A stretch of 48,712 nt of DNA. It comes from a virus. A model generated the notes under the pieces. That model saw only the letters and a program-made list of their open reading frames with translations. It did no database searches and was not told the DNA's origin. Positions 4,340 to 34,723 of the stretch are shown piece by piece (the stretch's first letter is position 1; each line of letters opens with the position of its first letter). The translations under genes were made by a program, and so were the position numbers. The stretch lies in the UHGV virus genome UHGV-1370921; one strand, 5' to 3'.

Positions 4340-4368
4340 TTGACGGACTCGTCAAGGTGGGTTATAGT
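4340..4368 (+). promoter_or_regulatory. sigma70-like promoter with palindromic -35 (TTGACGgactCGTCAA-N-TATAGT)
   Basis: TTGACG at 4340-4345, 17-nt spacer, TATAGT at 4363-4368. Member of the recurrent TGACG-N4-CGTCA promoter family. Confidence 0.55.
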
Positions 4369-4399
4369 TATCCTAGCAGAACAACAGGAGAGTAGAGAA

Positions 4400-4648
4400 A
4401 TGATTCACAAATTTAAAATTCAGTTAGCAGTCATCATGGCTGCGACAATTTACTGCAGCGGTGCCCACGCTGCACAAGGTGATCAGTTCCAGATTTATGA
4501 CGGACAGACCGACACGATTTGCACATATCATGAAAACGAATTTGGTTATGCGGAAAGTGATGACCCAGCATATATGGGTACTGGCGTTTGCTGGCGTAAA
4601 GATATGATGGATAAAGCAGACTTTCACATTCGGAGCAAAAGAAAATGA
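4400..4648 (+). CDS. small secreted Cys-containing protein (moron-like)
   Basis: 82 aa starting MIHKFKIQLAVIMAATIYCSGAHA|AQGD, a typical signal peptide with AHA-A cleavage. RBS AGGAG is 8 nt upstream. Driven by the promoter at 4340. Confidence 0.5.
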   Translation: MIHKFKIQLAVIMAATIYCSGAHAAQGDQFQIYDGQTDTICTYHENEFGYAESDDPAYMGTGVCWRKDMMDKADFHIRSKRK

Positions 4649-4794
4649 AAGTAAAAATCTTGCAGCAAGAATTAAAGGAAGACGGCGTTTTAACAACGTA
4701 CTCTAATGGTCATGTTGAAATGCTTCCGTATCTAATTGACGAAAACGGGGAAGAGTACGTTGAGATGTTCCCCAACGACATTGAACAACATTAA
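4645..4794 (+). CDS. small hypothetical protein (49 aa)
   Basis: ATGA overlap with the upstream gene. Sequence MKVKILQQELKEDGVLTTYSNGHVEMLPYLIDENGEEYVEMFPNDIEQH. Ends just before a terminator. Confidence 0.3.
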   Translation: MKVKILQQELKEDGVLTTYSNGHVEMLPYLIDENGEEYVEMFPNDIEQH

Positions 4795-4805
4795 GTATTT
4801 AGCAA

Positions 4806-4834
4806 ATAACTAAGGGGCCTGATGGCCCCTTTTC
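4806..4834. terminator. bidirectional rho-independent terminator
   Basis: aaGGGGCCtgatGGCCCCtttt. It sits between convergent units: the plus-strand genes end at 4794 and the minus-strand tube gene ends at 4837. Confidence 0.6.
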
Positions 4835-4836
4835 AT

Positions 4837-5253
4837 TTAGCTTGCCGGACCCTTACTTGGCGTCCAACTATTAAACTCGAAAATCCACTGGTCATCGGTA
4901 ATTGTCTGACCACCGCGCCCGCGCGGCCCATCGTTCACAATCACACCTTCTGCGCCGACAGCAGCATCGAGTGTGCCAATCTGAGTATAGGTCAACTCGA
5001 TATTGGCCTTACTCAGAAACAGCCCGTTGATGTACGCAGAGTCAGCCGAGCCGGGGTTGAGGTTCAGCGTGACACGACGACCCGGGTTGATGCGGTCCAG
5101 ACGAATAGCATTACCACCCAGACCACGACGTAACGCCGTGGATGCGTCAATCGGCTCGTCGGTATACGGCGGGTCAGACTCCCCGAAATCAGTAATGATT
5201 CGGCCATTAATTGTGATGACCGTGTTACTTGTGGAAAAGTTTTCTAATGACAT
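4837..5253 (-). CDS. tail tube-like protein
   Basis: 138 aa, immediately downstream of the sheath-like gene. Gly-rich beta-type composition. Role assigned by position. Confidence 0.45.
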   Translation of the reverse strand: MSLENFSTSNTVITINGRIITDFGESDPPYTDEPIDASTALRRGLGGNAIRLDRINPGRRVTLNLNPGSADSAYINGLFLSKANIELTYTQIGTLDAAVGAEGVIVNDGPRGRGGQTITDDQWIFEFNSWTPSKGPAS

Positions 5254-5266
5254 CGGTCATTCTCCA

Positions 5267-7865: not shown

Positions 7866-7915
7866 GGTGTGCCCTCATTTGTCAAGACATTATCACACAA
7901 CGTTGCACCGGTATC

Positions 7916-8203
7916 CACATACCCCGTTGAAACTCGTTCGGGGTACTTCATCGGGGTATCAAAAACTCTTTAGTTTTCTGTTACTTACTACTTATTACCC
8001 TTATACCCTTATAAAATAGTAATTAGTATAGTAGTAAGATAGTAAAAGAATGTATATAGACAATATACAAACGGTAATAAGAGGGAAGAGGGAATATAGC
8101 AGGAATGTACGGGGTTTTCGGTTATGCTCGTAAGCCTATGATTGTGAAAGCAAATTCGCCACCCCTATACCTGGGGTATTTTGGGGTAAAATGAGGTATT
8201 GAC
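7916..8203. repeat. 288-bp intergenic element copy A (hairpin + GGGGTA iterons + AT-rich core + promoter)
   Basis: About 90% identical to 21089-21376. Contains ACCCCGttgaaactcgttCGGGGT, CGGGGTA repeated at 11-bp spacing, an AT-rich TAGTA-repeat core, and ends at the TTGAC -35 box. Confidence 0.75.
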
Positions 8204-8227
8204 GAACGCGTCAGCTACTGCTACACT
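8199..8227 (+). promoter_or_regulatory. sigma70-like promoter TTGACGaacgCGTCAg-N-TACACT
   Basis: -35 at 8199-8204, 17-nt spacer, -10 at 8222-8227. RBS AGAGAGGA precedes the ATG at 8259. Confidence 0.55.
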
Positions 8228-8258: not shown

Positions 8259-8657
8259 ATGTCATTTGCAGCTTATATTTTAAAAAAAATAAATTCTGTT
8301 CCAGAAGAGAGTGTCCCTCAAGATGTCGCACAGCCATCACAGAGACTGATACGAATTACAAAAAGTGGAAAACCAGATGGTCGAAGTCTGGCACGAGGGA
8401 AGCCCAAAACCCGGAGACGCGTATCACGTGGGGTAAGGTCGTATGAGCGTATCATCCTCCTTGACGCCCTTGAAAGAGCAAAACCAGGCGATGAATTCAC
8501 ATGGAACTGGAGAACGAAAGCAACATATTCGGACATTAAATTGCGAACTGCACAGTTAACATATGTATACAAAACCGCGTGGATATACGGACACAAGGTC
8601 TCACTTTCCGCCAGACCGGGATACATGGTGATTAAATATGTGGGCAGTAATGCATAA
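8259..8657 (+). CDS. hypothetical early protein
   Basis: 132-aa basic protein and first gene of a plus-strand island. Good RBS. Confidence 0.45.
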   Translation: MSFAAYILKKINSVPEESVPQDVAQPSQRLIRITKSGKPDGRSLARGKPKTRRRVSRGVRSYERIILLDALERAKPGDEFTWNWRTKATYSDIKLRTAQLTYVYKTAWIYGHKVSLSARPGYMVIKYVGSNA

Positions 8658-8736
8658 GTCCGGAACAGTTTTGTTCACAACGAAAGATGAATTTATCGCG
8701 CTTAACCGCGCACAACATGGCTGGAGAGTTGAAGAA

Positions 8737-9186
8737 ATGAGTGAAATGAACATTTATCTGTCACGTCCTGGTGCACGTATCCCAACGTATGCAACGTCAG
8801 GAAGCGCGTGCTTCGATATTTATGCCGTACTCGATGAACCAGTGCCAGTTTGCAACGGTGAGCCTGTAATCATTCCTACAGGGCTTAAATTTGATATACC
8901 AGTTGGGCATGCTTTGATGATTTACTCACGCAGTGGTCACGGATTTAACAGCGATGTCCGTCTGTCAAATTGTACCGGTGTCATCGACAGTGACTACACT
9001 GGTGAATTAATGGTTAAGTTGACGCAGGATGTTGACCATCATGAAGGTGTGTTCTGGGTTAATCACGGTGACCGGATTGCACAGGGGATGCTGATTCCAG
9101 TCGAACAAGTGACGTTTAAGAAAATCAATGAACCTCCCCAACAGAAAACTAACCGTCATGGTGGTTTTGGGAGTACCGGAAGTTAA
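8737..9186 (+). CDS. dut: dUTP diphosphatase
   Basis: Motifs SRSGHGF, GVIDSDYTGEL and GDRIAQ are visible. The long ORF begins at 8638 but the ATG at 8737 gives a canonical ~150-aa dUTPase, with GGAGAG RBS. Confidence 0.85.
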   Translation: MSEMNIYLSRPGARIPTYATSGSACFDIYAVLDEPVPVCNGEPVIIPTGLKFDIPVGHALMIYSRSGHGFNSDVRLSNCTGVIDSDYTGELMVKLTQDVDHHEGVFWVNHGDRIAQGMLIPVEQVTFKKINEPPQQKTNRHGGFGSTGS

Positions 9187-9287
9187 CTCACGATACCACC
9201 CTGGTGGAACGCTTGCTGTTTGGCACGGTGAGTGTTACAGTCTCCACACGGGCAACATTAAAGTTACGGATGTAGCGCCTTCACAGG

Positions 9288-10250
9288 TTGGTCCGCCCGG
9301 TATCATTTAACTCCACAGATACCGGATTCACAGAAATGGCCACACGCATTCCACAAGAAGTAAGAGAGAAACAAATCGCCGAACTTTGCGAGGGTACGGT
9401 TTATTCCTTTGTCAGGTGGGTCGGTAAGTTTAAGGGTGTCAGGTCAAAATTCATATACACATGCGAAAAGCACGGTGAACAAACTGGTAAAGTTGAACAT
9501 TTCATGAACGGTACCAGATGTCCGATGTGCGGCGTAAGTAAACGCATGTTCAGTCAAGAAGAAAGACAGAATCAATTCGAAAAAGAACTGCAAAACACTA
9601 TCTATAGTTTCGCCCAGTGGTCACATTACGACGGCAAGAATACAAGCAGAGTCGTTTTCAACTGTCAAAGACATGGGGAATGGGAGACGTCTGTCAGGTC
9701 ATTTGTTGGAGGTTCTCGATGTCCAAAATGTTCTAGAGAGGCATCATCAGAAAAACAAAGATATGACGTAGAGAAACGAACTGAGCAGATTGTTCAGATG
9801 TGTAATGATTCTGGGTACGCCTTCGAAGGCTGGTGTGAAGGTTACAATAACGCCCGTAGTAATTTCAACTGCAGATGTCCAAAGCATGGTGTATGGAAGG
9901 TTGAATTCTCCGCTTTTAAACACGGTACCCGTTGTCCAAGTTGTGCTAAGACAGGTTTTAATCCCGATAAACCCGCATGGCTATACTGCCTAATTTCAGA
10001 AGACAACTTGTTAAAAGTCGGTATCACCAACGATATTGAAACCAGAATTTCACAGTTAAGAACTTATACTCCGTTCAGTTTTGAAGTTTTGGAGACGTTT
10101 AAAAATGTTGATGGTAACTTAATTCGAGAATTGGAAAGACAAGTTCATTTACAATTTGAGAGTGCGAATCTGAAAGGGTTTCAGGGGTGTACCGAATGGT
10201 TGAAGTGGAACCCAAAGATTCCACTATGGTTCAGATTTTTAAACGGCTAA
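9288..10250 (+). CDS. homing endonuclease, T5orf172/GIY-YIG-like C-terminal domain with three CxxHG...CPxC zinc-ribbon repeats (HEG1)
   Basis: C-terminus [37 protein letters not shown]...[12 protein letters not shown]-terminal repeats of the form CEKHGEQ...GTRCPMCG. Paralogous to 27110-27853, 32891-33658 and 37960-38850. Confidence 0.7.
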
Positions 10251-12726: not shown

Positions 12727-13869
12727 TTATTTAAGTTTACCAGTCTGACGCAGCAGTGCTTCTTGTGCGCGGGACAGTACAGGTTTTGCGTCGGCTACCG
12801 GCTGTTTGATGTCTTTAGCGCCATCTTTAGCCAGTTGCTCAAGCTGTGAGTCTACCACAGGTTTCACCGGTTCTTCCACAGCCATGTCGAAAGCGGCTTC
12901 AACATAGGCGGCAGATTTTTCAGCCCAGTCAACAGACGGACGTTTAACAGCAAGAGCGGCACGTTTGATTACAACCGGGTCCATGCTGTCACAGGTGAAT
13001 TCATCGCCAGCAACTTTACGCGCTGAGGTAGTAACACGTGCAATTGCTTCCACGCGTGCTTTCAGGGCTTCGTCGCTGCATTTGGTAGTCAGGTCGGCAA
13101 CCTGTTCCATTGCTGCGTCGAGTTGAGCCTGTACGGTTTCTTTGGCGGCTTCGGCGTCACTGACACGCTGTTCCAAGCGTTTGAACGCGTCTACTACCGC
13201 AGCATCCGCCACATCAACTTTTAGCCCGGTGTCAGTGGTGATTTGATACATGGGTTTTTTCTCCATATTATCGAAGATACGCGCCATTGCACCCGCACGA
13301 GCACGGTCAACAATTGCAACGTGGTTAATTTTAATCTGAGTCTGTCGGAAGTCGTATGGTTCACCTTCCGGCGTTGTCCCTGGTGTATCATCATACACCG
13401 CCGTGTAACCCGCTGACAACTCACACTTGCCGGTTTCGACAGCCTTAATCGCGTCTTTATCCTTAATAACCATATCCACAATGACGAAATCGCCGTCCTG
13501 ACGACCGACACTCGTCACAACACCGACAGAAGTATTGCGGTACGTGGAAGCATTGACAAGCGTAGGAGGATGGTTATTCGTGACATCTGCGCCGAGATAG
13601 CTCTGAAGTGATTCATCGTTAAACACTTCTTCGGCGGGACGGTACACACGGATAATGTCATTCGGTGCGCGACCTTTTAACCCCAGTTCCGAAGCGAGAT
13701 ATTCCTGAATACCAGTGCGAGCTGCTTTACCCGGCACACGCAGAAATCCCTCATCCGTGTAAACACGTTGGGAATTCAGTGCGAAACTTTTACGGTCATT
13801 GTGTGTTACGGTGATTTGCATGTTGACGAGTCCGTCAGAATATGCCATAGTGATAATCGTTAAACACAT
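12727..13869 (-). CDS. prohead protease / scaffolding fusion protein
   Basis: 380 aa. The N-terminal half is globular (GFLRVPGKAARTGIQEY...). The C-terminal half is a charged coiled coil (AEAAKETVQAQLDAAMEQVADL...), typical of a scaffold. The start codon is ambiguous (13869, 13848 or 13821). Confidence 0.5.
   Translation of the reverse strand: MCLTIITMAYSDGLVNMQITVTHNDRKSFALNSQRVYTDEGFLRVPGKAARTGIQEYLASELGLKGRAPNDIIRVYRPAEEVFNDESLQSYLGADVTNNHPPTLVNASTYRNTSVGVVTSVGRQDGDFVIVDMVIKDKDAIKAVETGKCELSAGYTAVYDDTPGTTPEGEPYDFRQTQIKINHVAIVDRARAGAMARIFDNMEKKPMYQITTDTGLKVDVADAAVVDAFKRLEQRVSDAEAAKETVQAQLDAAMEQVADLTTKCSDEALKARVEAIARVTTSARKVAGDEFTCDSMDPVVIKRAALAVKRPSVDWAEKSAAYVEAAFDMAVEEPVKPVVDSQLEQLAKDGAKDIKQPVADAKPVLSRAQEALLRQTGKLK
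13822..13850 (+). promoter_or_regulatory. sigma70-like promoter TTGACGagtcCGTCAg-N-CATAGT, embedded in the 5' end of the antisense scaffold gene
   Basis: -35 at 13822-13827, 17-nt spacer, -10 at 13845-13850. AGGAG RBS, then ATG at 13898. Confidence 0.45.
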
Positions 13870-14643: not shown

Positions 14644-14673
14644 TTGACGAGTTCGTCAGGGATGACGTATAAT
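14644..14673 (+). promoter_or_regulatory. sigma70-like promoter TTGACGagttCGTCAg-N-TATAAT
   Basis: -35 at 14644-14649, 18-nt spacer, consensus TATAAT at 14668-14673. Followed by RBS GAGGGTGAG and ATG at 14706. Confidence 0.55.
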
Positions 14674-14705
14674 CAGTTCATCAACAGCAGAGAGGGTGAG
14701 ACAAA

Positions 14706-14858
14706 ATGAATAACACATTACTTCCAGGCTACAACCGTCCCGTATCAGAGGCGCATATTGCCGATAAAGAACTGTTAAAGGCCGCACAACAGCTTGCACG
14801 CAAGCATGAAGATTGGGCGCTCGCTAACGCTGCATTACGTGAGGCGTATGGAAAATGA
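14706..14858 (+). CDS. small hypothetical protein (50 aa)
   Basis: MNNTLLPGYNRPVSEAHIADKELLKAAQQLARKHEDWALANAALREAYGK. Good RBS. Confidence 0.4.
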   Translation: MNNTLLPGYNRPVSEAHIADKELLKAAQQLARKHEDWALANAALREAYGK

Positions 14859-15052
14859 ACTGTAAACCAATCAAGGCGGTAATGCTCCGCAACAATGACA
14901 AATTTATCGATGTGGACGGTGTTATCACCGTGACAAACTTCAAAATGAACTTCCTCGAAGATATTGTGACATTTACCGCTATCAAAGAGGATGGTTCAGT
15001 ATCTCAGCGCTGGGTCGAGATGAATCAACTTGTTAATAAGGTGGTGGGCTAA
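14855..15052 (+). CDS. small hypothetical protein
   Basis: 65-aa ORF with ATGA overlap. Confidence 0.4.
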   Translation: MNCKPIKAVMLRNNDKFIDVDGVITVTNFKMNFLEDIVTFTAIKEDGSVSQRWVEMNQLVNKVVG

Positions 15053-15231
15053 TGGACATTATTAAAGGTGTACTGATTATCCTGCTTACAGGGTGGGTAA
15101 TTATAGTAACAATCAACACGCTACCTATGGAACTGGAATACAAGTGGCAGGCATGGACAATTGTTGCATTTGGTCCGGTTGCCGTATTTGCCGGACTGTG
15201 GGAGGTATGTGTGAGGGTGTTCAAGAAATGA
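15052..15231 (+). CDS. small membrane protein (2 predicted TM helices, 59 aa)
   Basis: MDIIKGVLIILLTGWVIIVTINTLP...AFGPVAVFAGLWEV. Start overlaps the upstream stop. Confidence 0.35.
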   Translation: MDIIKGVLIILLTGWVIIVTINTLPMELEYKWQAWTIVAFGPVAVFAGLWEVCVRVFKK

Positions 15232-15385
15232 CTGTAATCATGTGGTTTCTGTGGCGTCGTTGGCAGTTTAAAAGGTATGCCGGAAAAGACATCAGTTTGA
15301 CAGCGTGTCACAACAATAATCTATGCGGTTGCCGCAAACACCCTATTATCTATAACGATATGTGCCGCATTGTGAGAGGTGGGAA

Positions 15386-16333: not shown

Positions 16334-16362
16334 TTGACGACCTCGTCAGTATGGTGTAGAGT
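16334..16362 (+). promoter_or_regulatory. sigma70-like promoter TTGACGacctCGTCAg-N-TAGAGT, abutting the divergent MuF-like start codon
   Basis: -35 at 16334-16339 begins 3 nt from the minus-strand ATG at 16329-16331. 17-nt spacer. -10 at 16357-16362. Confidence 0.5.
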
Positions 16363-21376: not shown

Positions 21377-21400
21377 ACGGCAAACAACTCATGTAACAAT
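21372..21400 (+). promoter_or_regulatory. sigma70-like promoter TTGACA-N17-AACAAT
   Basis: In a position homologous to the promoter at 8199 in repeat copy A. The -10 is weaker. Confidence 0.4.
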
Positions 21401-23476: not shown

Positions 23477-23772
23477 TATGCTTTGCTCCGGTTTTTAACT
23501 AACTGGTCAATAACAACTGTGAAGAACTGGTTACATCCGACGTTCGGGTAATCGATTGCAAATTTATAACCCTGCTTCAGCAGATTGCCCTGACGCACAC
23601 TACCCGTGGGGTTAGTAATTCGTTGCACGTGTTCCAGTGTCATACCCATACGCTGCCCGTCACAACCGTTGAACAGCATGTTAGCGACCTGTGCTTCATC
23701 ACTCACTGCAATCACACCCGCGTGAGCCTGAGCGCCCACCAGGAGCGCTACAAGTGGTAAATATTTAATCAT
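23476..23772 (-). CDS. secreted small protein
   Basis: Signal peptide MIKYLPLVALLVGAQAHA followed by two Cys residues. Confidence 0.45.
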   Translation of the reverse strand: MIKYLPLVALLVGAQAHAGVIAVSDEAQVANMLFNGCDGQRMGMTLEHVQRITNPTGSVRQGNLLKQGYKFAIDYPNVGCNQFFTVVIDQLVKNRSKA

Positions 23773-23990
23773 GGTTTACGCTCCAACAATTCAATGTACT
23801 CTTTCAGTACGTCCGCGCGATGTTTACCCCAGGGTAATAAAATGTCAAAGCGTGAATCCTTCTGCACCCATTCTGTTTTGTCTTGCCACGTTATAAATGC
23901 AGCTTTATATTTCTCCAGTTCCACCACCCGAGCCTCAGCTGCCAAACAGCGCTCCATCAACTGGCAATAACTTAGTGTTTCCATATCCAC
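23769..23990 (-). CDS. hypothetical protein
   Basis: 73-aa ORF with ATGA-type overlap. Confidence 0.35.
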   Translation of the reverse strand: MDMETLSYCQLMERCLAAEARVVELEKYKAAFITWQDKTEWVQKDSRFDILLPWGKHRADVLKEYIELLERKP

Positions 23991-24154
23991 ATCTCCCGTA
24001 CTTTACCCCCAACAATGAGACGAGTGACACACAGTCCTTCCCGGTCAGCCTGTGTACGCATACGTGACAGCATGGTCAGCGCCTGAACCTCGGTCATATT
24101 ACCCAGCATGTCAGACAATTTGTGATGACTAATAATGTTTTTCATTTGTTGCAC
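23972..24154 (-). CDS. hypothetical protein
   Basis: 60-aa ORF. Confidence 0.3.
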   Translation of the reverse strand: MQQMKNIISHHKLSDMLGNMTEVQALTMLSRMRTQADREGLCVTRLIVGGKVREMWIWKH

Positions 24155-24332
24155 TCCTTTTTCATTAAACCCGCCGAAGCGGGTCGTATTTTATTTATTT
24201 ACCCTGCGTTGCCAGGTAGCGCTCTTTGAGTTTCTGCCAGTGCCAGCGCATGACGTGCTCGTTATGGTAGTTGCTTACTGAAAATTGTGTTTTCTTGCTC
24301 ATCTTCATCACCTCTCTGTTGTCGATGAACTA

Positions 24333-24361
24333 ACTATAACCCACCTTGACGAACTCGTCAA
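24333..24361 (-). promoter_or_regulatory. sigma70-like promoter TTGACGagttCGTCAaggtgggt-TATAGT (minus strand)
   Basis: Near-identical to the 4340 promoter, including the spacer and the TATAGT -10. Drives the early minus-strand operon 24304 down to 22322. Confidence 0.55.
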
Positions 24362-24371
24362 TATTGATCGC

Positions 24372-24395
24372 AAAAAAAAAGCCCCGAAGGGCTTA
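24372..24395 (-). terminator. rho-independent terminator after the primase-helicase gene
   Basis: Minus RNA AAGCCCuucgGGGCUU followed by U9. Overlaps the TAA stop of gene 24393-26750. Confidence 0.6.
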
Positions 24396-26750: not shown

Positions 26751-26776
26751 CTCCGTCTCTCTCTCTGTTTTGGTTA

Positions 26777-27055
26777 TTAAAGCAGGGTTGTCAGCGCGCG
26801 GGTGCGTAGCTCCAGTGGCGCAGATTTGGCAACGCTATCACCTAGCGCCATCCCCTGCCCAATCAATTCGAGGTTTTCTTCTTCCACTGCTCGTTGCATC
26901 ACTGCTTCACGAAGTGCGGACATCTTACCCCAGTGATGGTTAACACTTCCCATTGCCACGCCTGCTTCGGCTGCGACACCATCGCGTGTTAGACTGCCAA
27001 AGCCATCACGCTGTGCCATTACATATGCGACTTCTAAAATATTATCTTTGCTCAT
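26777..27055 (-). CDS. short TetR-N-like HTH DNA-binding protein
   Basis: ILEVAYVMAQRDGFGSLTRDGVAAEAGVAMGSVNHHWGK matches the TetR_N helix-turn-helix pattern. Only ~92 aa, so it lacks a ligand-binding domain. The track's GTG start lies inside its own promoter, so ATG at 27053-27055 is used. Confidence 0.45.
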   Translation of the reverse strand: MSKDNILEVAYVMAQRDGFGSLTRDGVAAEAGVAMGSVNHHWGKMSALREAVMQRAVEEENLELIGQGMALGDSVAKSAPLELRTRALTTLL

Positions 27056-27084
27056 GAGTTCGATTCCATTAGGTAATTTGTTGC

Positions 27085-27113
27085 AGTATGGCACAGGTTG
27101 ACGGAGTGGTCAA
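27085..27113 (-). promoter_or_regulatory. sigma70-like promoter TTGACCactcCGTCAa-N-CATACT (minus strand)
   Basis: Variant of the palindromic -35 family. 17-nt spacer. Upstream of the TetR-like gene. Confidence 0.45.
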
Positions 27114-27853
27114 CTACTGAGAAGTCTTAACCAGTATTGAATCTCGGGTGTCCATTTTAACCACTCTGTAGAACCTTTGAACCCAGTTAACTTCGCCGAT
27201 TCAAATTCTTTATGAAACATTTGTTCAAATTCGGAAACTGTTTTTCCGTCTGCCACAATTGTCTCAACTAAGAAAAAATTGAAAGGTGTACTTTTGACCA
27301 ACTCTTTGATTCTTCTTTCCAAACAGTTTGTTATGCCGATTTTGATGAGTCCGCCGTTTTCGGAGCGCAGCGCATAAAGTGTCCCTTCCGCTGTTTTCTG
27401 ATAACCGAAACCCGCACACTTTGGGCACCGTGTCCCACTATAGATGAAATGCCTCACCTTTAAATCCCATTCCAAATCATGAAGTTCGCAGTAGCAAGTA
27501 AATAGACTGTCCGAATTTTCATAAACTCCCTTCCATTTTACAAAACGATATGGGCTATCTTTGCATAGTTCGACAATTTCTCTTCGCCTATCGTCTTCGG
27601 GTGTTCTTAGTCGAATGCTGGCCTTTTCTACCGCACACTTTTTACATCGTTTTCCAGACCATAGGAAACGGTGCACGGTGGTTATCCAATCACCATGTTT
27701 TTCGCAGTTACATTTGAATTTACTTTTGCAATTTTCATAATTATCCACCCAACCGTTGAAACTGTATTGAGTCCCTGCACACAATGAATTTATTTCATCG
27801 ATGACCGTGAATTCACTTCTTGCGAGTTTCATAATGGACCTTCTCCTGACCAA
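27110..27853 (-). CDS. homing endonuclease, T5orf172/GIY-YIG-like with two Zn-ribbon repeats (HEG2)
   Basis: C-terminus LYALRSENGGLIKIGITNCLERRIKELVKSTPFNFFLV...GFKGSTEWLKW. Repeats of the form CEKHGDW...GKRCKKCA. Confidence 0.7.
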   Translation of the reverse strand: MVRRRSIMKLARSEFTVIDEINSLCAGTQYSFNGWVDNYENCKSKFKCNCEKHGDWITTVHRFLWSGKRCKKCAVEKASIRLRTPEDDRRREIVELCKDSPYRFVKWKGVYENSDSLFTCYCELHDLEWDLKVRHFIYSGTRCPKCAGFGYQKTAEGTLYALRSENGGLIKIGITNCLERRIKELVKSTPFNFFLVETIVADGKTVSEFEQMFHKEFESAKLTGFKGSTEWLKWTPEIQYWLRLLSS

Positions 27854-28302
27854 AACCGGAAATCACCGCCCAGCCCGATAATGAGTGTCCCAAATGCAAG
27901 CTGTGCCTTTTCGTGTTCCGTACCTTTATACTTCCACCCGGCTTTTTTTACCTCACGCGCCACAAACTGACCAATGGTTGACCCGACCATATCAGGCGTG
28001 ATAACCACGGGGCGGATACCGATAAGGTCACTCGACTTGATACGTTTGTTCATCGCCGGTGAGTCGTTTGCGATACCGTAACGTACCGGTACACCCCGCT
28101 CATCCTTCAGTACCCCGACGTTATTGCGAAAAAGTCGCCAGCCCATCTTACTTGCCAGCAGTCGCGCTTCATCCTGCACACGCGCTTCGGGCGTATTTTT
28201 AGTTGAGCGTGGGACATCCAGTCCCACCATTGTCACAAGGTCAGCCAGCGCCTCAGCCGTGATACCATGCTTGCGTTGCCATTCGAGAAGTGTGGGGGTC
28301 AT
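27829..28302 (-). CDS. VRR-NUC-like PD-(D/E)xK nuclease
   Basis: SDLIGIRPVVIT...GQFVAREVK is a D...E-x-K pattern. 157 aa. Confidence 0.4.
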   Translation of the reverse strand: MTPTLLEWQRKHGITAEALADLVTMVGLDVPRSTKNTPEARVQDEARLLASKMGWRLFRNNVGVLKDERGVPVRYGIANDSPAMNKRIKSSDLIGIRPVVITPDMVGSTIGQFVAREVKKAGWKYKGTEHEKAQLAFGTLIIGLGGDFRFWSGEGPL

Positions 28303-28484
28303 TGAGACTTCTCCCGACGTAAAATTCTGCGACTCTGACGCAATAGAACAGTGTACGTAAATTTAGAAATTTCTTCCCAATATGTACCATCGTAATTTTC
28401 AATACCCCAATAATATTTGACATCTTCTTCTTTTACTTCTAAACCACCGTAGTAGTTACCAATATTCCCAATTGGTGTACTCAT
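28299..28484 (-). CDS. small hypothetical protein
   Basis: 61 aa, Tyr/Trp-rich. Confidence 0.3.
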   Translation of the reverse strand: MSTPIGNIGNYYGGLEVKEEDVKYYWGIENYDGTYWEEISKFTYTVLLRQSRRILRREKSQ

Positions 28485-31153
28485 GACCCAATCCTCTCTC
28501 TTAATTTATCCGCATCAGCCGCTTTGAGCGCCTGCGCCTCCAGCCATGACACACCGTATGTCAGATAGAACTTGCGAAATATTTCACTGTCGCTCAGACC
28601 TTCCGCACGGCGATACCCGGCCCACTCCGCTAATTTTAGGTCCAATTTGACGAGCGCGTCAAGACGGTTTTCATGTAATTTAACGTTTCTCTTCACAGCA
28701 TGAGGCGGTAAACCGTGACCAATCATCTTATCTCGGTACTGGTTGACATCCTCGCGTGCAGCAACAACTTCATTGCGCATTTGTGCCAGTACGTCCGGGT
28801 CAAGCTCGTACAAGTCACCGTCCACAAACTCCGGGCCACTACGTTGCGCAGGTTTAGGTACAGGCTCACCGCAGTCAGGACATGCGTCACGGAATCGTTC
28901 GTACACTGCCGCGCAAGCTGTACACACGCGCACCGTCGATGTTTCACTTTTACCTGTGCGACGCTCCCGGCGGTCAAGACTCCACTCACGCGGTGCATCC
29001 GGTAAACCGTGGCGCATGACGTTGCCCACATGGTCAATAATAATCGCGTGGGTTTTACCTGGTAACGGTCTGAGGGCGCGGCCAAACATTTGACTGTACA
29101 TACTGTACGATTCAGTTGGACGACCAAATGAAACAACCTCAATGCCGGGACAATCGAAGCCCTCGGTCAGAATTTCCGAGTTAACTAATTGTAATATCTC
29201 TTTATTTTTAAATTTTCGCACCGCTGCGAATCGTTCAAGGTCGGGAGTATTACAGCTTATTGCCGCCGCCGGGACACCTGCTTTATTATACTGTTCCGCG
29301 ATTTCCTCAGCACTTGCCACATCGACGGTGAATGTCACGCCTGATTTACCACGGGCAATTTTCAGATATTGAGCAACAACATCGCCAGTGATGGTTTTCT
29401 CATCGTGTGCCACCAGTGATGAACCGTTAACGACTTCGCGCATCTGGTTCAGGTTAAAGTCCCCCGTGGAATCGCTGACCTTAATTTGTTCACGTGAGAA
29501 ACTACTTGGAGGTGCAAAAATTTTGTAATCGGTCAGATACCCATCTCGTATGAGTTCCCCCATTGCCACGCCTTCGAACATTGTGTCAAACACGCCATCC
29601 GCGTTACTTCCCAGGCCGTTACCATCCGCACGACACGGCGTAGCTGTAACCCCCAGCCCGCGAGCATTGGGGAACATCTGTACAGCTTTACCCCATTTGT
29701 TATCTTTAAGCACATGGTGTGCCTCATCGATAACCCACAGACGAACAGACGGTAACCAGTTAGCAAGTTGCTCTCCACGCCGGATGATTGTGTCCACGCT
29801 GGCGACCGCGTGTTTACTTCCTGCGTCGTAAAATGTCTTACCCAGTTCATCCATGTGAATCTTCACACAGTTTTTCACGGTTTTATTCGAACCGACAATG
29901 CGGTGATAGATGCCGTTTTTGGCAAGCGTGAGACTCATCTGACTGACGAGTTCCTGGCGGTGTGCAATGGCACATGTCGCACCTTGTTCGGCAGCGATGA
30001 TGGACGAGAAAATTACCGTGTTATGCGTAACAGTGAAATCACCCAACATGAACAATCTGTCACCATCTATTTCAAATCCGTAATAATCGTCCACTTCAAG
30101 TGGTTCAACTTTAATTCCAGTGACTAAAACAGATTTCTTCTGTTTCCTTTCCGCGACATTGTCTTTGTGTCGATTGCGCACGAATGGTAAACCAGAGAAA
30201 TCACCGCTAATGGTCATGCGCCAGTAATCACCAGTAAACCCGTTTTGACAGCTTTTTTTACACGGTTTCATGTAGCACGCGAACCCGAGAGAGCGCGCGA
30301 TAAAAGTTAAATCGTCAGCGAGTTGCTTCACTTTCAGCGTCACTTCGAAATAACCTTTGGATAGATGCCCGTCACTATCTAGTAACCCTGCGAGAACTTG
30401 TTCTCGAACCCGACGAGAAGTGGTTTTATAAACCTCAGGGATATGTTTATTGAGATACAAATTGTATTTTCTTAACGCTGAAAGCATTGACCCCGTGTGC
30501 TTACCATCACGCGGTAAAAAGTAAGTCCACGCTTTGTTATCTGGTCGATTATGATATTTCCTGACCCTGTGTCCCGTCTCACTTGCGTAACTGTGGATAT
30601 ATTCGACTATTTCGTCGTCGGCTGTTGTTATTGCTGCTGCGTTGGAGTTTCCATCACCTAACCACAGACCTAACATGTACGGCGGTAAAATTGGGTCGAA
30701 ATCTTTCTCCTCCCAGTCAACAGGCGCTCTCCACCCTTTGTAAAGATGTTTCCAGTGTTTTCCTTTATTGAGGTAATCACGCACTGAGATGTTTTCTATC
30801 TCACCAGCGCGGTCATCCTTGCCGGTATTGGTGCGCTTTAAACTTAGGATGTGACTCTCATTGACAACATATGGGTCGCCTTTTACCGGTGTCACCCTGT
30901 ACATTTTCTCCCGCCCCCGTGCAAGCGACAACACGCGCCGAGGTTTACTGTCGGGTCCCATTAGCAACTCACCTTGCACAATATCTTCTACGGGTTTAAT
31001 CGAACCGTCATACATTAAAACGGGTGTACCTTTACCTAGACACTTCCCCCCGCCTGTAGCGAGTACCGCCAGGATTTTCCCTTGCGGCTTTTGTTGCCAG
31101 TAGTCATTCAGCTGACTAACCAATGTTTGCTGATATGGTCGTAACTGCATCAT
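28481..31153 (-). CDS. SF2 DEAH-box DNA helicase containing an intein
   Basis: The extein has Walker A LATGGGK|T split by the intein. Also DEAH (VIDEAHH), TAT (motif III) and QxxGRxxR (motif VI). The C-terminus has a CxxC...CxxC zinc ribbon. Confidence 0.8.
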   Translation of the reverse strand: MMQLRPYQQTLVSQLNDYWQQKPQGKILAVLATGGGKCLGKGTPVLMYDGSIKPVEDIVQGELLMGPDSKPRRVLSLARGREKMYRVTPVKGDPYVVNESHILSLKRTNTGKDDRAGEIENISVRDYLNKGKHWKHLYKGWRAPVDWEEKDFDPILPPYMLGLWLGDGNSNAAAITTADDEIVEYIHSYASETGHRVRKYHNRPDNKAWTYFLPRDGKHTGSMLSALRKYNLYLNKHIPEVYKTTSRRVREQVLAGLLDSDGHLSKGYFEVTLKVKQLADDLTFIARSLGFACYMKPCKKSCQNGFTGDYWRMTISGDFSGLPFVRNRHKDNVAERKQKKSVLVTGIKVEPLEVDDYYGFEIDGDRLFMLGDFTVTHNTVIFSSIIAAEQGATCAIAHRQELVSQMSLTLAKNGIYHRIVGSNKTVKNCVKIHMDELGKTFYDAGSKHAVASVDTIIRRGEQLANWLPSVRLWVIDEAHHVLKDNKWGKAVQMFPNARGLGVTATPCRADGNGLGSNADGVFDTMFEGVAMGELIRDGYLTDYKIFAPPSSFSREQIKVSDSTGDFNLNQMREVVNGSSLVAHDEKTITGDVVAQYLKIARGKSGVTFTVDVASAEEIAEQYNKAGVPAAAISCNTPDLERFAAVRKFKNKEILQLVNSEILTEGFDCPGIEVVSFGRPTESYSMYSQMFGRALRPLPGKTHAIIIDHVGNVMRHGLPDAPREWSLDRRERRTGKSETSTVRVCTACAAVYERFRDACPDCGEPVPKPAQRSGPEFVDGDLYELDPDVLAQMRNEVVAAREDVNQYRDKMIGHGLPPHAVKRNVKLHENRLDALVKLDLKLAEWAGYRRAEGLSDSEIFRKFYLTYGVSWLEAQALKAADADKLRERIGS
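30020..31042 (-). mobile_element. LAGLIDADG-type intein (341 aa) inserted in the helicase P-loop
   Basis: Starts with Cys1 (CLGKGTPVLMYDGS). Block B is NESH. Two LAGLIDADG motifs: LGLWLGDGN and LAGLLDSDGH. Ends ...FTVTHN with a +1 Thr that restores GGGKT. Confidence 0.8.
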
Positions 31154-31208
31154 GTTTTCCTCATCCTGTTGTAATAACCGCTCACATTACCAGAACCCGT
31201 TCCCATCT

Positions 31209-31379
31209 CTACATCTCCCACACTTTGCGCACGTGGTTCGACTCAACCATACGTGCCTTTCTGATTAGTTTACGTGCCACATACATCGGTATCTGCACAT
31301 CGTCGAGGAACCATTTGTCCTTCTTACTGACCGAGTTGTACCAGCCATAAGAAGGTCGGAGCAGTTGTTTAATTTTCAT
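31209..31379 (-). CDS. small hypothetical protein
   Basis: ATGA-coupled to the upstream small ORF. MKIKQLLRPSYGWYNSVSKKDKWF... Confidence 0.25.
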   Translation of the reverse strand: MKIKQLLRPSYGWYNSVSKKDKWFLDDVQIPMYVARKLIRKARMVESNHVRKVWEM

Positions 31380-31596
31380 GCAGCACCTCAACATGACACG
31401 CCTGCAATATAGCGCTCTCCAGTTCACCTGTTTTGTAATAGGGGTGTAATAAGTACCCGTGACGTTGACCATCAATCTCAATGATTGACCAGTCCGTACG
31501 AACACCACCCGGCACGGTGCGTACGGCTATAAAAGTACGGTCGCCACATTGATATTCGCGGTTATCACGGGTTATTTTTACGCATTTGATGCTCAT
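31369..31596 (-). CDS. small hypothetical protein
   Basis: ORF 31369-31632. Its first ATG overlaps a putative promoter -10, so the start at M13 (31596) is preferred. Confidence 0.3.
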   Translation of the reverse strand: MSIKCVKITRDNREYQCGDRTFIAVRTVPGGVRTDWSIIEIDGQRHGYLLHPYYKTGELESAILQACHVEVLHEN

Positions 31597-31673
31597 CTCT
31601 CTACTCTCCCCAACTATTGACGATAGCGTCATTGTGCATCACCACCCTCCCCGTGTCAAATTTAAAATTAGTG

Positions 31674-31702
31674 TTGACGAGTGCGTCAGACTGGTATAGA
31701 GT
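31674..31702 (+). promoter_or_regulatory. sigma70-like promoter TTGACGagtgCGTCAg-N-TAGAGT
   Basis: -35 at 31674-31679, 17-nt spacer, -10 at 31697-31702. RBS AGGAGGACAGAGAG, then ATG at 31736. A second TGACGatagCGTCA copy without a -10 lies at 31617-31631. Confidence 0.55.
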
Positions 31703-31735
31703 TCACCACATCGACAACAACAGGAGGACAGAGAG

Positions 31736-31948
31736 ATGGGCGCAAAAGTAAACGAATCGATACCTGCTGTAAAAGTCGAAAACGAATATTCACCGGGATT
31801 CCACACTTATGAAGAAGTGAAAATCGAATTCAACTCGGTGAGCGACATTCTGATTCTGTCCCAAAACGGAAACGAAATCACTATGGAAATGGGGCAGGTA
31901 TTTGACTTTCTGGAAGTCATGCTCCGTTTAAAAGATAAACTTAACTAA
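31736..31948 (+). CDS. hypothetical protein
   Basis: 70 aa, acidic. Confidence 0.4.
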   Translation: MGAKVNESIPAVKVENEYSPGFHTYEEVKIEFNSVSDILILSQNGNEITMEMGQVFDFLEVMLRLKDKLN

Positions 31949-31967
31949 CCGAACAGGAGTCCGAATA

Positions 31968-32885
31968 ATGACCAACCTTATCACCTTAACCATCCCGAAC
32001 GACGACCACATTGCATTGCGTGCGTTTGGTAAAGCACTGGAAGAAATGGCACTGGCGCACGGTGCTGAGCCGCGTAAGACCATCGGTGAACTGTCGTACA
32101 AATTGAACATTGACACTACTGACGCAACTGAGACGCTGGAGCGTCTCAATGACGCCACTGGTGAATTAATGCAAGCAGCGCCGCATATGCCGGATGAGTT
32201 GCGTTTCGAAGGTGAGGGACTACACGGTAAACGTAAAGAGCCAGAAGTCGATACCACCGCTCAACAGGTTGAGTCACTGGTCCCCCGTGACGGAAGAAGT
32301 ATTGAAGTAACTCGCGAAATGGTTGAATTGTGCATACCAGTTAAACCGGATATCGACCCACCCACCACCGACTCAACTGGTACACCGTGGGACGAGCGTA
32401 TCCACTCCACCAGCAAAGCGCTCAATGCGGACGGCACGTGGCGTCTGCGTCGTAAGCCGAAGGACATGGGTGAGGAGCAGTGGGCGGCATTTGTTGAGTC
32501 GATTAAAAATGAACTGATGGGTATCGACGCGCAAGACCTGAAAGAATTTGAAGAAAGTAAACAGGCAATTCTTGAACCACCCGTAACACCACCGGGCGAT
32601 GATTTCCACACTGATACCGGTGTGGTGACGGAGCAAACTGTTGCGGGTATTCCGCCAATTCCGGTACCGCCGCCGGTAGTTGTTGCACCACCTGTACCGG
32701 AAGTAACCGAGTGGGACTTCCCGCGCCTCATGACCTTCCTGACCGAGCGTCACGGTAAGATTGATGTGACAACTGTGAACACACTACTAGCGCAGGACGG
32801 TATGTCGTCGGTGCAGGAACTGAACGCCCACCCGGATAAAATTGGTCTGTTCGTGGCACGTGTTAAAGCGCATTTGGGGGAGTAA
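31968..32885 (+). CDS. hypothetical replication-module protein with Pro-rich linker
   Basis: 305 aa. Contains DSTGTPWDERIHSTSK, a peptide shared with ORF 38840-39424. Pro-rich PPVTPPGDD...IPPIPVPPPVVVAPPVP linker. Confidence 0.4.
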   Translation: MTNLITLTIPNDDHIALRAFGKALEEMALAHGAEPRKTIGELSYKLNIDTTDATETLERLNDATGELMQAAPHMPDELRFEGEGLHGKRKEPEVDTTAQQVESLVPRDGRSIEVTREMVELCIPVKPDIDPPTTDSTGTPWDERIHSTSKALNADGTWRLRRKPKDMGEEQWAAFVESIKNELMGIDAQDLKEFEESKQAILEPPVTPPGDDFHTDTGVVTEQTVAGIPPIPVPPPVVVAPPVPEVTEWDFPRLMTFLTERHGKIDVTTVNTLLAQDGMSSVQELNAHPDKIGLFVARVKAHLGE

Positions 32886-32890
32886 CAATA

Positions 32891-33658
32891 ATGCCTGCGA
32901 AACTGACCACCGACAAATTGATTGACAAATTCATAAAAATACACGGTAAGCGGTATGACTATTCTAAGGTCGTGTATGTCAACCAGTGGCAACGGGTGAT
33001 TATAAAATGCAGGCAACACGGTGAATTCACGCAAACGCCTAACCAACATTCAAGAGGGGCGAACTGTCCCTCTTGCTCAATAATCACAGCATCGAGAAGT
33101 AGAACCGGTGAATTTGACAGATGGGTCGCTAAATGTAATGCCGTACATAATTTCAAATATTCTTATAACCACTCTGGAAAATTTAAATCTACCCGAATGG
33201 TGGACATACGTTGCCCTGAACATGGTCGTTTCTTACAGGTAGCATATGACCATGTCAGAGGGGCGGGTTGTCCGATGTGTTCCGATTCCGGATTCAACAG
33301 GTTGGCGTTAGGTTATCTTTATGTGCTGATATCCAATGACCTACGATTTTTCAAAGTGGGTATAACTGGAAACATACCTAAAAGGTTAAGAAGATTGTCG
33401 TACAATACCCCGTTTCACTTTCATCTCATATCTTCTTACCAGTCAACGGGTAAAAGTGTTGAGGAAATGGAAAGGTCAATCCACGCTCGTTTTAAATCTG
33501 CCGGAATGGAAGGTTTCGACGGCGCTACAGAATGGTTGAAAACAAATAACCAAATAGAGGAAGTGCTTCATGAATTATCCGAAAGTAAGTGCATCAAACC
33601 AGTGGATGAGGTGTCACGGGTCGTTCAATGCCCAAAATATATATCCTCCGATCACTAA
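32891..33658 (+). CDS. homing endonuclease, T5orf172/GIY-YIG-like with two Zn-ribbon repeats (HEG3)
   Basis: C-terminus LYVLISNDLRFFKVGITGNIPKRLRRLSYNTPFHFHL...GFDGATEWLK. Repeats of the form CRQHGEF...GANCPSC. Confidence 0.7.
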   Translation: MPAKLTTDKLIDKFIKIHGKRYDYSKVVYVNQWQRVIIKCRQHGEFTQTPNQHSRGANCPSCSIITASRSRTGEFDRWVAKCNAVHNFKYSYNHSGKFKSTRMVDIRCPEHGRFLQVAYDHVRGAGCPMCSDSGFNRLALGYLYVLISNDLRFFKVGITGNIPKRLRRLSYNTPFHFHLISSYQSTGKSVEEMERSIHARFKSAGMEGFDGATEWLKTNNQIEEVLHELSESKCIKPVDEVSRVVQCPKYISSDH

Positions 33659-34691
33659 CGAATTATCTCAATCGAGATTAGAGGGCAGAACATGTCACGA
33701 AATCGTTCAGAAGTTGTTTAAGAATGAACCATTTAGTGACCTCATTGGCTCAGTATCGAAAGAAGGGATTGTGATCACTGATGAATTATTCGATGCCGCC
33801 AGAGAAGTTTTCAATGTGATATGGGGCGAGTGTAACAGATTAAACAAATTACAATCTTTAAAAATTGAACAACCTTGTAATGTTCCCGGATATGATGGAT
33901 GGGTATGCATACCCGACGCATGGTTTTATGATAAAAGCTCCAATACTTTACATGTTTACGACGCTAAATTCGGTCATCGCATTGTTGACCCGTTTGAAAA
34001 CTGGCAGTTGTTAATTGAAGCATTCAGCATTTGCGAACAGTTTCAGTCGCCGCCGGACATTATTGAACTGGTTATTGTACAACCCCGTGGATTCACCAGT
34101 GACGGTACGGTGCGCAAATGGGCGCTCACATACGATGAACTGTGCGTGTACCGGCAGCAGGTGAACGAGACGATGCCCCGCGTACTGGACGCCGTCCCAC
34201 TGTGTATACCAGGACCACACTGTCTCGACTGTAGCGCACGTGCACACTGTGACACGCTGAAGCAACAAAGTTACGCAGGTATTGACTACGTGACATCGCT
34301 GCAGACACACAATCTGTCCGGTCATGCACTGGGTGTTGAACTGCGACTTCTGCAGCGTGCACAGGAGATGATTAAAATGCGTCTCAGTGGTCTGGAGGAA
34401 CAAGCGCTACACGAGATTAAACAGGGACAACACGTGACATTCTACAGCGCTAAAACCACATACGGTCGTAAGCGTTGGAAGAAAGATGTCCCGGTTGACC
34501 AGGTGATTATGATGGGGGATTTACTCGGTCAGAATTTGCGTAAACCGCAGGAACTGGACACGCCTGCACAGTGTGTCAAAAAAGGTATCGACCCGTCCAT
34601 TATTGAGCAGTACGCCGAAACACCTGTCACGGGTGTCAAGCTGGAACAGGTCGACGAACGTGCAATTAAAAATGTATTTTCCCGAAAATAA
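33570..34691 (+). CDS. Cas4/RecB-like PD-(D/E)xK exonuclease with 4-Cys cluster
   Basis: GWVCIPDAWFYD...LHVYDAKFG carries the D/E...D-x-K motifs. C-x5-C-x2-C-x5-C (LCIPGPHCLDCSARAHC) is an Fe-S-type cluster. The 5' end overlaps the HEG3 3' end by 89 nt. Confidence 0.5.
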   Translation: MNYPKVSASNQWMRCHGSFNAQNIYPPITNELSQSRLEGRTCHEIVQKLFKNEPFSDLIGSVSKEGIVITDELFDAAREVFNVIWGECNRLNKLQSLKIEQPCNVPGYDGWVCIPDAWFYDKSSNTLHVYDAKFGHRIVDPFENWQLLIEAFSICEQFQSPPDIIELVIVQPRGFTSDGTVRKWALTYDELCVYRQQVNETMPRVLDAVPLCIPGPHCLDCSARAHCDTLKQQSYAGIDYVTSLQTHNLSGHALGVELRLLQRAQEMIKMRLSGLEEQALHEIKQGQHVTFYSAKTTYGRKRWKKDVPVDQVIMMGDLLGQNLRKPQELDTPAQCVKKGIDPSIIEQYAETPVTGVKLEQVDERAIKNVFSRK

Positions 34692-34694
34692 TTA

Positions 34695-34723
34695 TTGACG
34701 CACCCGTCAAACTAACGTAGTAT
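34695..34723 (+). promoter_or_regulatory. sigma70-like promoter TTGACGcaccCGTCAA-N-TAGTAT
   Basis: -35 at 34695-34700, 17-nt spacer, -10 at 34718-34723. Followed by a 7-bp 5'UTR hairpin GGGAGACagagGGTCTCCC at 34733-34752. Confidence 0.55.

Follow-up and report, generated by a model that had tools for sequence, protein, structure and literature searches.

Near-consensus sigma-70 promoters recur on both strands of the viral genome UHGV-1370921, a stretch of 48,712 nucleotides (nt) that is here called the window and was analyzed at its full length. These promoters share a palindrome, TGACG-N4-CGTCA (N4, any four nucleotides), which overlaps the -35 box and extends into the spacer, and they raise the question of which protein, if any, reads this element. 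An initial annotation had assigned it to a dimeric DNA-binding protein controlling one regulon. In our analysis, the palindrome is very probably an operator for a symmetric DNA-binding protein, as judged from its number, its placement, and the constraint on its two arms. With less confidence, we consider it probable that a dimer of a 92-residue TetR-like protein (mini-TetR), encoded in the window, binds this operator and would repress the early promoters, including that of its own gene.

The palindrome and its promoter context

An exact search of the window for TGACG-N4-CGTCA returned 11 matches (at 4341, 8200, 13824, 14645, 16335, 24347, 28648, 31618, 31675, 34696, and 37807), versus 0.07 expected, and none of 100 shuffled sequences reached 11. 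Two further copies carry one mismatch (27099, TGACC..CGTCA, and 48409, TGACA..CGTCA), for a total of 13 copies. When the same arms were searched at spacings of N0 to N3 and N5 to N12, 0 or 1 match was found at each. When 5+5 palindromes of every sequence, with gaps of 0 to 10, were counted without bias, TGACG/N4 came first with its 11 occurrences, and the next unrelated palindrome reached 3. Ten or 11 of the 13 copies fall in intergenic DNA, which makes up 7.7% of the genome, and 9 or 10 form promoters of the type TTGACG-17/18-TAnnnT.

In these promoters, the left arm coincides with bases 2 to 6 of the -35 box (TTGACG) and the right arm with spacer positions 5 to 9, so that the palindrome has a fixed position of about -34 to -21. 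A consensus scan placed the -10 hexamer at 17 nt and, in two promoters, at 18 nt; the listed promoters match 9 to 11 of the 12 sigma-70 consensus positions. They are intergenic and point to downstream open reading frames (ORFs) with Shine-Dalgarno sequences, thereby combining a TTGACA-like -35 box and a TATAAT-like -10 box, 16 to 18 nt apart, with a location before genes. All promoter positions of the initial annotation were recovered by the scan to within one base (13822 should read 13823). Its statement that every -35 box reads TTGACG holds for most promoters, but the promoter of the TetR-like gene has TTGACC and the site at 48408 has TTGACA. Every site that it listed was found, but two exact intragenic copies (28648 and 37807) had been missed.

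Megablast against the phage collection showed 88 to 93% identity over most of the window to Jedunavirus genomes. About 200 records match, and these genomes include Klebsiella phages JD001, pKp383, and the RCIP series and Escherichia phage ZCEC13. By this comparison, the window (48.7 kb) is essentially a complete genome of the ~48-kb Jedunavirus myovirus group (JD001/ZCEC13-like). The layout was derived from the ORF map of the window and the JD001 and ZCEC13 annotations. Late structural genes lie on the minus strand (11-21040 and 41375-48372) and are broken up by five short plus-strand islands of small genes, and the replication region (22322-39424) consists of divergent operons. The palindrome copies and their promoters are as follows.

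4340..4368, plus strand: promoter TTGACG-17-TATAGT; predicted operator 4341-4354 (TGACGGACTCGTCA); heads island 1, small ORFs to 4794 and then a bidirectional terminator (4812-4831)
8199..8227, plus strand: promoter TTGACG-17-TACACT; predicted operator 8200-8213, at the right end of a 289-nt repeat (D1); heads island 2 (8259-10250), with an ORF of no known function, a dUTPase gene, and a GIY-YIG/T5orf172 endonuclease-like gene
13823..13851, plus strand: promoter TTGACG-17-CATAGT; predicted operator 13824-13837; heads island 3 (DUF3310 and DUF551 ORFs)
14644..14673, plus strand: promoter TTGACG-18-TATAAT; predicted operator 14645-14658; heads island 4 (four small ORFs, 14706-15580)
16334..16362, plus strand: promoter TTGACG-17-TAGAGT; predicted operator 16335-16348; heads island 5 (16400-17743)
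24361..24333, minus strand: promoter TTGACG-17-TATAGT, directly after the primase terminator (24379-24394); predicted operator 24347-24360; heads the minus-strand operon from 24145 down to 22322
26777..27055, minus strand: mini-TetR gene (92 codons), directly upstream of the primase gene (24393-26750)
27113..27085, minus strand: mini-TetR's own promoter TTGACC-17-CATACT, with TG before the -10 box; predicted operator 27099-27112, a one-mismatch copy (minus-strand reading TGACCACTCCGTCA)
28662..28633, minus strand: internal promoter-like site TTGACG-18-TAAAAT; exact palindrome 28648-28661; inside the 3' part of the helicase gene (28481-31153)
31618..31631: predicted operator over about -7 to +7 of the minus-strand promoter TTGACA-17-CACAAT (31659..31631)
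31674..31702, plus strand: promoter TTGACG-17-TAGAGT; predicted operator 31675-31688; heads the replication/recombination operon (31736-34691)
34695..34723, plus strand: promoter TTGACG-17-TAGTAT; predicted operator 34696-34709; heads the operon for the single-stranded-DNA-binding protein and DNA polymerase (from 34778)
37807..37820: exact copy, without a -10 box, inside the DNA polymerase coding sequence (amino acids T-D-G-L-V)
48409..48422: one-mismatch copy (TGACAGTTACGTCA; minus strand TTGACGTAACTGTCAA); the scan reads TTGACA-17-AATTAT at 48408

Sigma-70 does not read the spacer positions occupied by the right arm. When the ten paralogous promoters of the window are aligned, nothing is invariant apart from TTGAC, CGTCA, A at -11, and T at -7. 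A larger set of 168 distinct sites was assembled from 36 loci, namely, the window, JD001, ZCEC13, the Shewanella phage, and 32 loci from IMG/VR; a -10 box lies at 17 nt in 119 of them and at 18 nt in 23. In this set, the information content is about 2 bits at every arm position and about 0 bits in N4, where only a weak bias shows (not-T, not-T, not-A, not-A), and the -10 box lies clearly below the right arm. Compared site by site among orthologues (17 to 29 distinct sequences per site), the arms are invariant, N4 and the spacer from the palindrome to the -10 box vary freely, and parts of the -10 box also drift. Of the promoter-oriented sites, 98% have a T ahead of the left arm, whereas only 70% have the mirror-image A behind the right arm; because of this asymmetry, the polymerase would appear to need TTGACG and the symmetric binder TGACG/CGTCA. 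The element is thus symmetric, conserved beyond what the polymerase needs, and fixed over the core promoter. Together with a copy on a start site, the invariance of the arms, the lack of information in N4, the stronger conservation of the right arm than of the -10 box, and the flanking asymmetry support the earlier proposal that the conserved spacer half CGTCA marks a dimeric binder whose operator overlaps the -35 box. A CRP/FNR-type site was rejected on spacing, since an FNR site is TTGA-N6-TCAA and the sites here read TTGA-N8-TCAA.

The start-site copy, at 31618, follows directly after the -10 box of TTGACA-17-CACAAT, the minus-strand promoter at the head of the helicase operon. It had been described as a copy without a -10 box; none is present on the plus strand, but the copy lies on this minus-strand promoter. 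The site, its promoter, and the 57-base-pair (bp) distance to the copy at 31675 are kept in nearly all related loci, and the divergent replication control region therefore has one predicted operator over a -35 box and one over a start site. Because the 31618 copy sits on the predicted start site, the palindrome would be an independent operator and not a long -35 box. The arms of the 28648 copy are near-invariant in 17 distinct orthologues, and most related loci have an exact copy placed at a matching distance upstream of the mini-TetR gene; this copy is probably an internal promoter. The copy at 48409 lies just upstream of the minus-strand baseplate operon (ATG 48372), and the same one-mismatch variant, TTGACGTnACTGTCAA, also precedes the baseplate operon in Pantoea phage AAM22 (locus L043, 24860-24873). 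Given this shared placement, the reach of the regulator may extend to one late operon as well, although the function of the copy is uncertain.

The exact copy at 37807 was considered as a promoter or operator of the endonuclease-like gene that splits the polymerase gene. This role was rejected, since the copy lies in true polymerase coding sequence without a -10 box and its arms vary at synonymous sites in relatives; it is probably incidental. Two of the island copies lie very close to late genes on the opposite strand. The palindrome at 13824 ends 2 nt from the ATG (13821) of the protease gene, and that at 16335 ends 3 nt from the ATG (16331) of the head-morphogenesis gene. In the late mRNA of these two genes, a 5-bp hairpin formed by the palindrome would cover the ribosome-binding region, and the N4 of the 16335 copy supplies a GAGG Shine-Dalgarno sequence.

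The 92-residue TetR-like protein as candidate binder

Mini-TetR matches TetR_N (PF00440) in Pfam with 31.7 bits (cutoff, 24) over residues 6 to 52 and so has the N-terminal three-helix helix-turn-helix (HTH) domain of the TetR family. Pfam or PHROG scans covered 40 ORFs of the window, nearly all of them early or island genes, and no other of these 40 reached a DNA-binding family cutoff. In PHROGs, mini-TetR falls into phrog_8723, annotated as "unknown function." An AlphaFold model from an 86-sequence alignment has a predicted local distance difference test (pLDDT) score of 96.8 and seven helices (3-17, 24-31, 35-42, and 45-58, followed by short helices at 62-70, 74-77, and 81-89). An earlier model from 24 close homologues was discarded (pLDDT 72, with the HTH region below 50). 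A profile search of the PDB returned TetR-family chains only. The fold matches in the PDB were also all TetR-family chains; they cover the N-terminal part only, with target-normalized template modeling scores of 0.23 to 0.37, and none reached an E value of ≤1e-3.

The C-terminal ligand/dimerization domain of the TetR family, with about six helices in proteins of ~190 to 250 residues in total, is missing from mini-TetR, which ends at residue 92. The protein is a TetR-like minimal variant, set apart from canonical TetR family members, and is of interest as a minimal TetR in which an HTH is followed by a tail of ~40 residues that must supply dimerization. With the ligand domain absent from the predicted structure, release from DNA by a small-molecule ligand is unlikely. 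A HMMER search of the library found 629 related clusters at an E value of ≤1e-10, all matching the full 92 positions, and these are either single forms of ~90 to 120 residues or tandem duplications of ~165 to 172 residues. Of the distant family members listed, about one in three is tandem and has an N-terminal copy that has diverged (e.g., P0131, P0134, P0135, P0141, and locus L003, 38065-38565). The protein of Shewanella phage SppYZU01 has the tandem form, its C-terminal half being 43% and its N-terminal half 27% identical to the window protein. The tandem forms look like natural single-chain pseudo-dimers, and since such fusions exist, two HTH units may act together, as a dyad operator requires. 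A homodimer on the palindromic operator is suggested by the perfect dyad, the 10-bp spacing of the half-sites, and these fusions.

The mini-TetR gene and the motif travel together. TTGACC-N4-CGTCAA-...-CATACT stands before the gene in each of the 29 Jedunavirus-like IMG/VR loci. Homology between these genomes (window position 27113; loci L004 to L032) starts exactly at the TTGACC of this promoter and the DNA upstream is unrelated, which marks the promoter as a mosaic junction in the genome comparison. SppYZU01 and its relatives have TGACG-AACC-CGGCA, within TTGACG-17-TAGTAT, before the gene. A site, usually with one mismatch, also precedes it in loci L036 to L039 and L042, in Pantoea phage AAM22, and in Edwardsiella phage MSW-3, while none lies directly upstream in L041 and only a diverged one does in L040. 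In seven metagenomic phages with a 40 to 54% identical protein and a G+C content of 44 to 67%, the gene always lies between those for a DEAD-box helicase and a primase and faces an operon for a DUF2800 nuclease and DNA polymerase.

The motif itself was recovered without prior knowledge from several of these genomes. The commonest de novo palindrome is TGACG/N4 or TTGAC/N6 in five of the seven metagenomic phages, AAM22 has ten exact copies, and TTGAC-N6-GTCAA is among the top palindromes of Vibrio phage CP-T1 and MSW-3. The Jedunavirus-like loci hold 198 exact copies in 654 kb (0.7 expected) and the distant loci 32 in 282 kb (0.1 expected). The protein family and TTGAC(G)-N4-(C)GTCAA sites thus co-occur down to ~30% protein identity in a broad set of ~45- to 50-kb phages, among them Pantoea, Shewanella, Vibrio, Edwardsiella, and metagenomic phages. 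The suggestion that the 92-residue TetR-like protein is the candidate binder gains support from the TetR_N match, the site before its own gene in nearly every relative, and this co-occurrence. The proposal of one regulon that includes the promoter of the TetR-like gene likewise agrees with the computed sites and the conserved site at that promoter.

A TetR-family protein of Escherichia coli, RutR, binds TTGACCAnnTGGTCAA (PMC2475637). The RutR box shares the outer half-sites TTGAC-N6-GTCAA and their spacing with the phage motif, which shows that this geometry can be read by a TetR-type HTH dimer. The same resemblance bears on an alternative in which a host protein (RutR, another TetR-family protein, or another dimeric regulator) binds the palindrome and ties early transcription to host physiology. 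Chromosomal sites bound by RutR agree with its consensus at only 9 to 13 of 14 positions (PMC2475637), and by our own count, the copy at the TetR promoter, TTGACCACTCCGTCAA, matches at 12 of 14. We nevertheless regard a host binder as improbable. The motif persists across Shewanella, Vibrio, Edwardsiella, Pantoea, and metagenomic phages with G+C contents of 44 to 67%, and one host factor would need to be conserved in all of their hosts. A TetR-type HTH protein is encoded by each of these phages itself, and its gene nearly always has a site in front; the 60 best PDB sequence matches of the mini-TetR family do not include RutR.

Another phage protein could also be the binder, with mini-TetR acting on some other target, but we assign little probability to this arrangement. 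The candidates are the cysteine-rich protein of 195 residues (21438-22025), a nuclease-like protein of 384 residues (22322-23476), and an unrecognized small early protein. Many small early ORFs have no family match, the nuclease-like protein has a weak N-terminal winged-helix match (HTH_24, below cutoff), and the cysteine-rich protein, which the initial annotation had put forward as a possible binder, has several CxxC pairs. However, these proteins are not conserved beside the motif in the distant loci, whose common genes are limited to those for helicase, primase, DUF2800 nuclease, polymerase, and mini-TetR, and no feature is more consistent across the clade than the site before the mini-TetR gene. 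The cysteine-rich protein has no DNA-binding family match, and the promoter of its gene is the only paralogue that lacks the right arm, so that its nomination did not hold up.

Proposed regulation and competing explanations

If mini-TetR is the binder, the following sequence of events can be envisaged. Host polymerase would fire the near-consensus promoters once the DNA enters the cell, and one early operon, helped by the gene's own promoter, would yield mini-TetR. Its dimer would then bind at about -34 to -21 and exclude sigma region 4 from the -35 box, and at the divergent minus-strand helicase promoter, it would sit on the start site (31618). The early set, comprising the five plus-strand islands, both replication operons, and the mini-TetR gene itself, would in this way be damped or shut off. 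The five island promoters point head-on into late structural operons, and the palindromes at 13824 and 16335 abut late-gene start codons. Because of this head-on orientation, the islands would need silencing for late passage, and the silenced islands would clear the way for late transcription. We infer the identity of the binder, its dimerization, repression, and timing from association.

The direction of regulation is not readable from the sequence, and mini-TetR might bind and instead activate or protect the promoters, for example, by recruiting polymerase or keeping them open late. Several -10 boxes are imperfect (TAGAGT, CATAGT, and TACACT), so that assistance might be required at some promoters. 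Activator sites lie at about -41.5 or farther upstream, or, in the case of the MerR type, within 19- to 20-nt spacers. The palindrome is centered at about -27.5, over the -35 box and a 17-nt spacer, which is the classic position of a repressor; this, the 31618 copy on a start site, and the near-consensus -35 boxes make activation quite improbable.

Least probable, with only a slight chance in our judgment, is that no protein is involved and that the palindrome is a by-product of duplicated promoter cassettes, back-to-back divergent -35 boxes, or an RNA or DNA hairpin. As the initial annotation had claimed and sequence comparison bore out, the promoters at 4340 and 24361..24333 are identical from the right arm through the -10 box (CGTCAaggtgggtTATAGT), with only N4 differing; several promoters share the leader CATCGACAACAGAGAGG, four copies read TTGACG on both strands, and 37807 and 34696 show up in the scan as weak hairpin-plus-T sites. 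Common descent, however, would conserve all positions alike, whereas N4 and the flanks have fully diverged and the arms are invariant; most copies have no -10 box on the opposite side; and copies at -34 to -21 are not transcribed from their own promoter and would form a weak 5-bp stem.

Several points weigh against repression by a mini-TetR dimer. The canonical dimerization domain is missing, and the dimer is therefore assumed. A RutR-like host protein could read many of the sites at ~12 of 14 positions, and inheritance of the whole replication module from a common ancestor could account for the joint presence of protein and motif. Family members have different recognition helices (VAMGSVNHHW, VSMGLVTRYF, and VAHGCVNAAF), yet the motif hardly changes, and covariation lends no support. 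Covariation of recognition helix and operator was set aside as uninformative, since only L040 pairs a changed arm (TAACG) with a T23-to-R substitution, a single case. The N-terminal half of the tandem protein is only 27% identical, yet the sites of the Shewanella phage are still palindromic. Because TTGACC..CGTCAA is the general site form in L038 and L042, the "imperfect" site at the mini-TetR promoter may not be a weaker one. Finally, the searchable open-access literature holds no binding, transcription-start, or expression data for these phages.

Neighboring elements, related systems, and significance

The late genes appear to use a different device. A 289-nt direct repeat with 91% identity (7915-8203 and 21088-21376) fills two divergent intergenic regions, each with the start of a minus-strand late operon at one end (neck gene, 7865; terS, 21040) and a plus-strand promoter at the other. 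The repeat is kept in JD001 (96%) and ZCEC13, where the copies are 100% identical, which suggests gene conversion, and is absent from Pantoea phage AAM22. Within it lies the dyad ACCCCG-N12-CGGGGT, found twice (7921-7944 and 21094-21117; 0.01 expected) and centered ~50 bp upstream of minus-strand extended -10 sites (TGtGATAAT ending at 7889 and TGgTAGAAT ending at 21062). This layout is similar to that of the Ogr-dependent late promoters of P2, and the dyad looks like an activator site of late promoters. The second repeat copy ends in TTGACAcggcAAACA...AACAAT (21372-21400), a paralogue of the promoter at 8199 without the right arm of the palindrome. It precedes the gene for the cysteine-rich protein (phrog_20468, of unknown function), which would escape the proposed repression; its product is a candidate late activator.

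Four paralogous genes encode GIY-YIG/T5orf172-type endonuclease-like proteins (9336-10250, plus strand; 27110-27832, minus strand; 32891-33658, plus strand; and 37960-38850, plus strand). They have CapR or treble-clef zinc-finger repeats and share 79-nt and 36-nt DNA repeats. Related genomes differ in which of these genes they carry, and the four therefore resemble genes for homing endonucleases. The gene at 37960-38850 splits the DNA polymerase gene into ORFs 36440-37963 and 38840-39424: residues 1 to 504 and 509 to 701 of the intact ZCEC13 polymerase map on either side of it, and the JD001 gene is also split. A leader, (a)GTTCATCGACAACAGAGAGG, is shared after the -10 box and leads into the Shine-Dalgarno sequence at ~4369-4400, 14674-14705, 24295-24332 (minus strand), and 31703-31735, and the same leader occurs in Pantoea phage AAM22 (L043, from ~43870). 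It represents either recently copied cassettes or a conserved 5' untranslated region element. An Rfam scan of the window gave no family match.

The proposed control resembles that by TetR/tetO, QacR, and RutR in its TetR_N HTH, in palindromes of 14 to 16 bp with half-site centers ~10 bp apart, in an operator placed over core promoter elements, and in a regulator that appears to control its own gene. TetR-family repressors differ in their length of ~190 to 250 residues, versus 92 here, where three short helices replace the ligand/dimerization domain and no inducer is expected, and in acting on one divergent gene pair, versus about ten promoters across a virus genome; tandem forms also exist in the phage family. 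The operators of P1 C1, the "stoperators" of mycobacteriophage L5 gp71, and the inverted repeats of phiC31 are dispersed operators of temperate phages. In them, as proposed here, one phage repressor serves many near-identical sites, scattered over the genome at or inside early promoters, including its own. In contrast, those repressors maintain lysogeny and Jedunaviruses are treated as virulent; protein folds, site sequences, and symmetry also differ, the P1 and L5 sites being asymmetric. Integrase, excisionase, and partition genes are absent from the JD001 and ZCEC13 annotations, and no such family was found among the part of the window ORFs put through Pfam, which does not fit a system for prophage maintenance.

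The anti-CRISPR-associated (Aca) proteins are HTH autorepressors on strong phage early promoters. They are alike in being small dimeric HTH proteins, encoded behind a strong constitutive-type promoter, that act at an inverted repeat over the -35/-10 region and damp a harmful early burst, but they control a single operon and belong to other HTH families, whereas the operator here is copied onto essentially all early promoters. In T4 middle promoters, a MotA box at -30 works with sigma appropriation by AsiA. Both cases place a phage-specific element in the -35/spacer region of a temporal promoter class; however, the asymmetric MotA box replaces the -35 box, while here the -35 box is near consensus (TTGACG, TTGACC, or TTGACA at every site), the element is a perfect dyad, and no homologue of AsiA or MotA was seen. 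Promoter-early stem-loop (PeSL) cassettes of T4-type phages are proposed recombination substrates. They, too, are near-identical early promoter cassettes that flank small variable gene islands and coincide with mosaic junctions, but they are not proposed as operators, and in the window, the constraint falls on the symmetric 5+5 core and not on the whole cassette.

No description of the motif, the regulon, the Jedunavirus promoters or transcription program, or the target of phage "tetR-like" genes was found in the open-access literature; a description elsewhere is possible. Comeau et al. 2012 listed "tetR-like cellular regulators" in the related phages phiPLPE, CP-T1, and 138 and proposed no target. 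CP-T1 (L044) carries both mini-TetR and TTGAC-N6-GTCAA sites. The logic of the proposed control, a repressor on the -35 box with negative autoregulation, is textbook and extends known biology; it is not a new kind of system. Vibrio phage CP-T1 has been reported as temperate, yet without known lysogeny genes (PMC3391216). A rather unlikely, more far-reaching possibility is that the 92-residue protein founds a class of ligand-free mini-TetR master regulators (hundreds of clusters, single and tandem) that would govern the early-to-late switch of a widespread clade of ~45- to 50-kb phages through operators embedded in the -35/spacer region. In members such as CP-T1, the same protein-operator pair could be the missing repressor that sustains a carrier or pseudolysogenic state.

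A compact ligand-independent repressor could be a useful part for synthetic biology when paired with a short operator that fits into a consensus -35/spacer region. Jedunaviruses are among the Klebsiella phages isolated most often for therapy. If repression by mini-TetR is true, it would provide a map of essentially all of their early promoters, together with the single small protein that controls them, and a rationale for the odd layout in which five early islands face late structural operons.

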